This document shows positions 23,428 to 63,020 of a stretch of DNA of 64,000 nucleotides, piece by piece (position 1 is the first letter of the stretch; each line of letters starts with the position of its first letter). Location of the stretch: contig NC_134026.1 in NCBI RefSeq assembly GCF_964204645.1, forward strand, positions 29,236,150 to 29,300,149, in the 5' to 3' direction. Under the pieces are notes generated by a model. That model had not been told where the DNA came from. It made no database searches and saw nothing but the letters and a program-made list of their open reading frames with translations. Made by a program: the position numbers and the translations under genes. The stretch comes from Tubulanus polymorphus. Its lineage: Eukaryota; Animalia; Nemertea.

Positions 23428-63020
<39,593 letters not shown>

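Follow-up and report, generated by a model that had tools for sequence, protein, structure and literature searches.

The window, a 64,000-nt stretch of contig NC_134026.1 of the nemertean Tubulanus polymorphus, contains on its minus strand a gene whose sequence assigns it to the CPEB2/3/4 (Orb2) subfamily. The encoded protein has RRM_7 (PF16367), RRM_1 (PF00076), and CEBP_ZZ (PF16366) domains, all above the Pfam cut-off. Its RNA-binding domain scores 424 bits against the CPEB4 RRMs (2mki) and 176 bits against CPEB1 (2mkh), and its last 259 residues are 91.5–92.7% identical to vertebrate CPEB2, 3, and 4. Coding exon 1 (61989–63020), a 100% match to RefSeq XP_074642587.1 of the same species, encodes most of the disordered N-terminal domain, starting with MGDYG like human CPEB4 and without a histidine cluster; the window ends ~1 kb upstream of the start codon. 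Exon 2 (60582–60693) has 112 nt and ends in phase 1. The RRM1 exon (44148–44330) contributes the residues G-K-S-P, an acidic-aromatic stretch, and the start of RRM1, and five further minus-strand exons (36036–35947, 34041–33923, 32607–32493, 24204–24023, and 23655–23428) encode the remaining RRM1, RRM2, and ZZ regions. The gene is tail to tail with a sideroflexin gene (PF03820; 5151–6819, plus strand), and in human, SFXN genes presumably share their chromosome arms with CPEB3 and CPEB4. On the plus strand, two similar open frames of ~185 residues, rich in cysteine (9833–10390 and 13032–13580), have no Pfam match and are apparently a local duplicate pair. Tandem-repeat arrays in the CPEB introns (27549–28233 and 37148–37505) give repetitive open frames.

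Between exon 2 and the RRM1 exon, the gene has four phase-1 options, all on the minus strand. The first is a 27-nt extension of exon 2 (60555–60581) by an alternative donor at 60555, which adds nine residues in RefSeq model X2. The second is an optional 66-nt exon of phase 1-1 (60370–60435), present in RefSeq model X1 only and with no junction contig seen. The third is an optional 45-nt exon of phase 1-1 (58107–58151) directly upstream of the fourth, a 24-nt microexon (48718–48695). The 45-nt exon occupies the same place as exon 3 of vertebrate CPEB4, but its sequence is unlike. Other species have optional inserts at the equivalent spot, namely 7 residues in Lineus, 17 in Penaeus, 18 in Tachypleus, and 4 in amphioxus. 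Since these inserts are unrelated in sequence, the region appears to be a lasting splicing hotspot in which only the 24-nt exon keeps its sequence.

The microexon is of phase 1-1 and is translated as NRGYGKRQ, followed by G-K-S-P (GKSPF); leaving it out preserves the reading frame. An intron of 9,388 nt lies between it and the 45-nt exon, whose end is at 58107; the intron on its other side spans 4,364 nt up to 44330. The acceptor reads ...ttgtctcttcag, ending in tctcttcag, and the donor reads AAG/gtagat. The 3' splice-site region (48719–48773, minus strand) is a 55-nt AG-free zone with a UCUC adjoining the AG, in which CTGAT at −47 and TTAAT at −34 are candidate branch points by motif match. 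On the other side, the donor and downstream flank (48619–48694, minus strand) comprise GTAGAT, matching the consensus at 7/9 positions, and a triple YCAY cluster from 48645. From the 45-nt exon to the RRM1 exon, a distance of 13.8 kb, there are 46 AG-24nt-GT candidates (32 open in phase 1), and the pyrimidine tract of the microexon is the best of the 46 (11/14). A second microexon, whether a duplicate or a mutually exclusive alternative, was rejected, as the window holds no near copy within seven mismatches.

We then inspected the splicing evidence. Five sequencing runs were mapped as contigs only; none is recorded as RNA, and they have no tissue or library record. Run X1 was taken as RNA solely since its contigs are spliced. 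At a joint 44329/48694 in this run, exactly 4,364 nt bounded by GT and AG are left out, and the entire microexon lies within each of two 81-nt contigs, of depth 10.8 and 7.2. The upstream loose ends of both contigs fit exon 2 (end 60582) plus the 45-nt exon (end 58107) at 30 of 30 letters, while the other five upstream exon pairings tested explain 7–22 of the 30. For the former pairing, loose-end agreement was expected at 0.583 and observed at 0.58. Hence, from the 4,364-nt joint and the match of the loose ends to two upstream exons, both junctions flanking the microexon are in use. On its downstream side the microexon is joined to the RRM1 exon, and on its upstream side to two different exons, directly to exon 2 in one contig and to the 45-nt exon in one contig. 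In the run X1 contig on the RRM1 exon, three exon-end letters are compatible with no upstream exon other than one that ends in AAG, and loose ends of contigs in runs X1 and X3 join the RRM1 exon at 44148 to the exon at 36036. A genomic-type contig of run X2 is unspliced across 47413–49043, so that the joined form is not the sole form of this DNA. It differs from the window by 14 letters in ~1.6 kb with none in the microexon, a number too small to show constraint. Run X3 has contigs on exon 2 and over a portion of the RRM1 exon, with no piece on the microexon, and run X5 has none in this region; neither run speaks for or against inclusion. The junction evidence thus comes from one run of one sample. 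Of the two run X1 contigs over the microexon, one differs from the window by a single letter within 48695–48718; the overlap geometry of the contigs places it probably at 48698, where the Gln codon begins, and an allele suggests itself as the simplest reading.

The 24-nt exon of Tubulanus is therefore genuine and spliced, as indicated by the sequence, by spliced contigs on both sides, and by all three RefSeq models (XP_074642586.1, XP_074642587.1, and XP_074642588.1; CPEB3-like X1–X3), each of which contains the microexon peptide. An artefact or a chance AG-24-GT was rejected on the basis of the junctions and of the conservation described below. A sequence-only reading of this DNA had proposed an isolated 24-nt exon of phase 1-1 with a good pyrimidine tract and an AAG/GTAGAT donor, which the sequence and the junction contigs bear out, and had placed NRGYGKRQ directly before the G-K-S-P/RRM1 exon, in agreement with the sequence and the 4,364-nt joint. 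The two junctions it had named (58107 to 48718 and 48695 to 44330) are both present in the run X1 contigs. Its expectation that gene predictors would probably miss the exon was wrong, as XP_074642586, -7, and -8 all contain it. The names of these three proteins carry no microexon mark and no link to me4, the vertebrate CPEB4 microexon.

Inclusion of the vertebrate exon is neural and SRRM3/4-dependent (PMC11711090). Zebrafish cpeb4 (DreEX0023919) and cpeb2 (DreEX0003080) have 24-nt exons of the same family, mapped to a human event and listed as neural and eMIC-dependent, with an eMIC ΔPSI of −46 and −60, respectively; the cpeb4 microexon has a PSI of 87.8 in neural tissue versus 3.8 in muscle (PMC12626424). 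Different from CPEB4 me4, no skipped form or neural restriction was seen in Tubulanus among the 3/3 RefSeq models and the 2/2 contigs of one run of one sample, contigs being prone to drop rare forms. The 100 nt upstream of the microexon, AG-free zone included, are devoid of UGC/TGC, as the sequence-only reading had stated for the pyrimidine tract, and it was also right that no TGCATG is near. UGC is likewise missing from 32% of 548 intron windows of 97 nt, and from 21–26% of human SRRM3/4 microexons (10.1101/2024.09.17.613571); being common both by chance and among true human targets, its absence is weak evidence. Features of eMIC microexons include a long AG exclusion zone, a UCUC-rich tract, and a strong branch point (PMC8797185). 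The microexon has an AG-free zone of 55 nt, compared with 21–84 nt at the other acceptors of the gene, one UCUC, and CTGAT at −47. Regulation by RBFOX was rejected for want of a proximal site, the nearest downstream TGCATG being at 47092, 1.6 kb away. The YCAY triple, a Nova-type motif, is no more than a weak lead, since 30 of the 274 intron windows have such a triple and its occurrence does not exceed chance.

Inclusion in Tubulanus may be neuron-biased, or it may be near-constitutive. The latter reading, that a homologous exon has become constitutive or near-constitutive in Tubulanus and has no neural switch, deserves serious consideration, though we do not regard it as the probable one. It would agree with the presence of the microexon in all three RefSeq models and both contigs, with the AAG-ending letters of the RRM1-exon contig, and with the splice signals, in that UGC is lacking, the pyrimidine tract adjoins the AG, and the donor equals the constitutive donors of the gene in quality. 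Against it, contigs drop rare forms, the second nemertean Lineus shows both included and skipped models, and UGC is missing from about one in four human SRRM3/4 targets as well. It is compatible with the function that we favor below.

Conservation beyond the window was assessed on protein models, not on genomes or reads. We compared 19 same-species pairs of protein models from 16 invertebrate species, comprising Lineus, Lingula, Liolophura, two Octopus, Mercenaria, Ruditapes, Dreissena, Tachypleus, Nephila, Parasteatoda, Penaeus, Ptychodera, Glandiceps, Branchiostoma, and Clavelina. In 19/19 pairs, which were chosen for differing by eight residues so that the count is no frequency, the difference is a single eight-residue block in one register and compatible with phase 1. 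Changes in the split codon exclude phase 0 in three pairs, and only phase 1 fits in both hemichordates. The block is thus optional in nemertean, brachiopod, mollusc, chelicerate, crustacean, hemichordate, amphioxus, and tunicate models, and six phyla, vertebrates included, have it. In Lineus, two models have the block and two are without it. Two further arthropod-like proteins, most similar to those of centipede and horseshoe crab, contain it as well.

The blocks resemble each other in sequence. Specifically, the block is ARTYGRRR in amphioxus, ARAYGRRR in octopus, ARSYGRRR in spiders, GRGYTRRR in shrimp, and AGLFRRRR in the tunicate, and the vertebrate blocks are ARSYGRRR in CPEB2, TRSYGRRR in CPEB3, and xRTYGRRR in CPEB4. 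The amphioxus peptide is identical to the human one printed in 10.1101/2023.03.19.532587. NRGYGKRQ of Tubulanus shares 4/8 residues with human ARTYGRRR plus one Lys/Arg exchange, and the two are bridged by GRGYGKRQ of Lineus and ARTYGRRQ of the chiton. In all 16 tabulated blocks, position 4 is Tyr or Phe and two to four residues are basic; the serine context downstream and the histidine cluster vary. In the bivalves Mercenaria, Ruditapes, and Dreissena, the optional block has drifted (ALNFKQKL, ARNFRQLL) and keeps the aromatic residue at position 4. The mite Dermatophagoides and the tick Ornithodoros have a basic remnant at this place (GRFNRKR and GRPFGRRK) in every model seen, with no skipped partner. 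A homologue search with residues 374–450 gave 1,097 matches; the 120 listed are mostly vertebrate, and 106 of the 112 new rows among them have the motif, for which the query itself selects; a search with Ptychodera residues 335–432 gave two matches.

The block was not seen in protein models of insects (two of mayfly, one of beetle, three of Drosophila), sea urchins (four), and a tardigrade (one). Nor was it seen in models of the gastropods Aplysia (one), Lymnaea (one), Patella (two), Biomphalaria (one), and Bradybaena (one), of the bivalves Saccostrea (two), Pinctada, Tegillarca, Potamilus, and Mactra (one each), or in single models of Strigamia, Centruroides, and hagfish. For Haliotis, it was not seen in the three models inspected out of eight, and the eight include no pair differing in length by eight residues. 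These absences rest on models rather than genome scans, and the sampling left out named annelids, cnidarians, and xenacoelomorphs, so that the root is not bracketed.

Two mechanisms have been published for the vertebrate exon. In human CPEB4, the arginines of the exon bind to a cluster of histidines and maintain condensate reversibility, and they raise multimerization and condensation through side-chain contacts; CPEB2 and CPEB3 are also called histidine-enriched (PMC11711090). In mouse CPEB3, PKA and CaMKII phosphorylate S419/S420 in the presence of the exon and far less in its absence (PMC4767366). We counted histidines in the 24 residues before the QRR anchor, and found none in Tubulanus, none in amphioxus, one in rodent CPEB3, and nine in bird CPEB4. 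The ten anchor-bearing invertebrates have zero to three, six of the 18 rows being without the anchor. In the densest 24-residue window, 14/14 invertebrate proteins have two to five histidines. Against a simple picture, a sea-urchin-like protein without the block has eight histidines per 24 residues, and ray CPEB2 has nine. With respect to phosphorylation, the Arg at −3 of the next-exon serine is replaced by Gln in Tubulanus, and in amphioxus the peptide is that of human and no serine follows.

Judged by these sequences, neither the histidine-cluster mechanism nor the RxxS kinase site is predicted to transfer to Tubulanus. Because the exon persists without the histidine cluster and sometimes without the kinase serine, its basic function would be something else. 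We consider it somewhat probable that the block serves as a basic-plus-aromatic sticker, with Arg/Lys around a Tyr, on the disordered arm ahead of the RNA-binding domain. This is favored since all 16 rows keep the position-4 aromatic and two to four basic residues before the conserved acidic-aromatic stretch, which the block directly precedes. The disordered arm of Tubulanus has 34 acidic and 31 basic residues; three of the latter come from the microexon, whose inclusion shifts the arm charge from −6 to −3. The charge shift and the cation-π partners beside the acidic-aromatic stretch may tune CPEB self-association in translation-repression granules; alternatively, the sticker may tune contacts of the arm with RNA and cofactors. 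The charge role would be weak where arginines are few, as in the Tubulanus block (two) and two bivalve blocks (none to two). The histidine-cluster buffering of human CPEB4 could then be a later use of an older exon. An invertebrate experiment on the function of the exon was not found in the literature searched.

The chief rival to the sticker mechanism is a kinase switch as the ancestral job. The arginines of the exon would complete R-x-R-x-x-S with a serine of the next exon, only the inclusion isoform would be phosphorylated, and the site would have decayed in Tubulanus. Aside from the CPEB3 phosphorylation mentioned above, it is favored by the full RxRxxS in 8/16 rows, which lie on both sides of the bilaterian split and make the motif probably the ancestral state. 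These are 5/13 invertebrate rows (Lingula, Octopus, Tachypleus, Nephila, and Ptychodera) and 3/3 vertebrate rows, the vertebrate paralogues. The remaining 8/13 invertebrate rows, including Tubulanus with its Gln at −3 and amphioxus with no serine, lack it, and in human neurons the modifications of CPEB4 are unchanged on depolarization in either isoform (PMC11711090). We thus regard the kinase switch as unlikely, though not negligible. The comparison with exon 7 of CPEB3, the "B-region", and its CPEB2 counterpart (PMC4767366) shows the same eight-residue cassette directly before the next-exon serine, and a second optional segment lies upstream in both CPEB3 and the Tubulanus gene. In contrast to CPEB3, position −3 is Gln in Tubulanus and Ser-Ser is replaced by Ser-Pro, so that no PKA/CaMKII RxxS site results.

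A localization signal was considered as well, in which the basic block shifts the nucleus–cytoplasm shuttling of the inclusion isoform. The block lies 10–40 residues after a conserved LExxLxDIMR motif, which we take to be an export signal. CPEB3 and CPEB4 shuttle via CRM1, but the review that reports this ascribes nuclear accumulation of CPEB3 to IPO5 and, in its accessible text, does so without mention of this exon (PMC8623629); the bivalve blocks, moreover, are barely basic. This reading is improbable, and the sticker on the disordered arm is retained as the preferred function.

The origin of the exon can be stated with more certainty than its function. Compared with human/mouse CPEB4 me4 (ARTYGRRR, residues 403–410; PMC11711090; 10.1101/2023.03.19.532587), the Tubulanus exon is likewise 24 nt long, belongs to the same gene family, and sits at the same place before the G-x-S and RRM1 exon, with the differences that it has two rather than four arginines, no histidine cluster, and no upstream UGC. 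As length, register, position, and sequence are all shared, descent is very likely, and we put at roughly 0.93 the probability that the two are homologous by descent from the protostome–deuterostome ancestor. The block would have been present in that ancestor, and lost or left unannotated in insects, gastropods, and sea urchins. A separate origin of the exon in invertebrates and in vertebrates, at a phase-1 position that permits such gains, might draw on documented cases in which neural exons were gained repeatedly at corresponding places (10.64898/2026.09.05.749416; PMC8797185) and on insect, gastropod, and sea-urchin models in which the block was not seen, but it is highly improbable, as the length, the register, and the R-x-Y/F-G-R/K-R core are common to six phyla and convergence would need many identical gains. 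The suggestion in the sequence-only reading that the exon predates the vertebrate duplications, and possibly the protostome–deuterostome split, is supported further than it was claimed, by the 19/19 pairs and by vertebrate CPEB2, 3, and 4. Its designation as a counterpart of the CPEB4 autism exon holds for the exon, which is very likely homologous, and fails for the condensate mechanism, which needs a histidine cluster that the Tubulanus protein lacks.

Accepted bilaterian-ancestral neural microexons are only those of APBB1/2/3 (6 nt) and MADD (9 nt), and the preprint stating so, a 2026 survey of 20 bilaterians, requires an insect copy (10.64898/2026.09.05.749416). Its species include amphioxus, octopus, and centipede, and its main text is without "CPEB". 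Likewise, the accessible text of PMC8797185 describes four exons shared by fly and mouse and contains neither "CPEB" nor "orb2". Fly–mammal comparisons in these two sources describe the neural microexon programme as almost fully rewired. If the ancestry holds, the CPEB exon would be of comparable age to the APBB1/2/3 and MADD microexons; it differs from them in its 24 nt, its position in a disordered arm, and its apparent absence from insects. The accessible text of PMC9465852, PMC8011179, PMC13487878, PMC8623629, and PMC10735318 has nothing on the ancestry of the exon. Literature with both "ygrrr" and "cpeb" concerned, by its listings, human CPEB4 only. No report of the exon outside vertebrates was found in the full-text literature; a table entry stays possible, with preprint supplements, Torres-Mendez 2019, and Parras 2018 lying outside that scope. 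The exon is already in public gene models, and what is new, and apparently unreported, is its ancestry and the contrasts with the published mechanisms.

We regard as evenly balanced the wider proposal that the CPEB4 autism microexon is the third and largest neural microexon from the last protostome–deuterostome ancestor, overlooked by surveys since insects lost it, older than the histidine cluster, and with an original function still undiscovered in its R-x-Y-G-R-R-R motif. If true, that function would be exposed by invertebrates without the histidine cluster and, in amphioxus, also without the downstream serine. A disease-linked exon of eight residues, with the same peptide in amphioxus as in human and with optional use in octopus, spiders, shrimp, and ribbon worms, would clearly extend the list of two ancestral microexons. 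Its persistence without the histidine cluster, and sometimes without the kinase serine, questions the current mechanism. The natural variants, namely the nemertean KRQ, the low-Arg bivalve blocks, and the amphioxus block without serine, form a panel that would separate the charge, aromatic, and kinase roles.

Downstream of the CPEB stop codon, three GTGCAAT sites, seed matches of the miR-92 family, are located on the minus strand (18663–21212). The 3'-UTR of Cpeb2/3/4 is reported to contain a segment that is conserved across bilaterians (PMC10735318).
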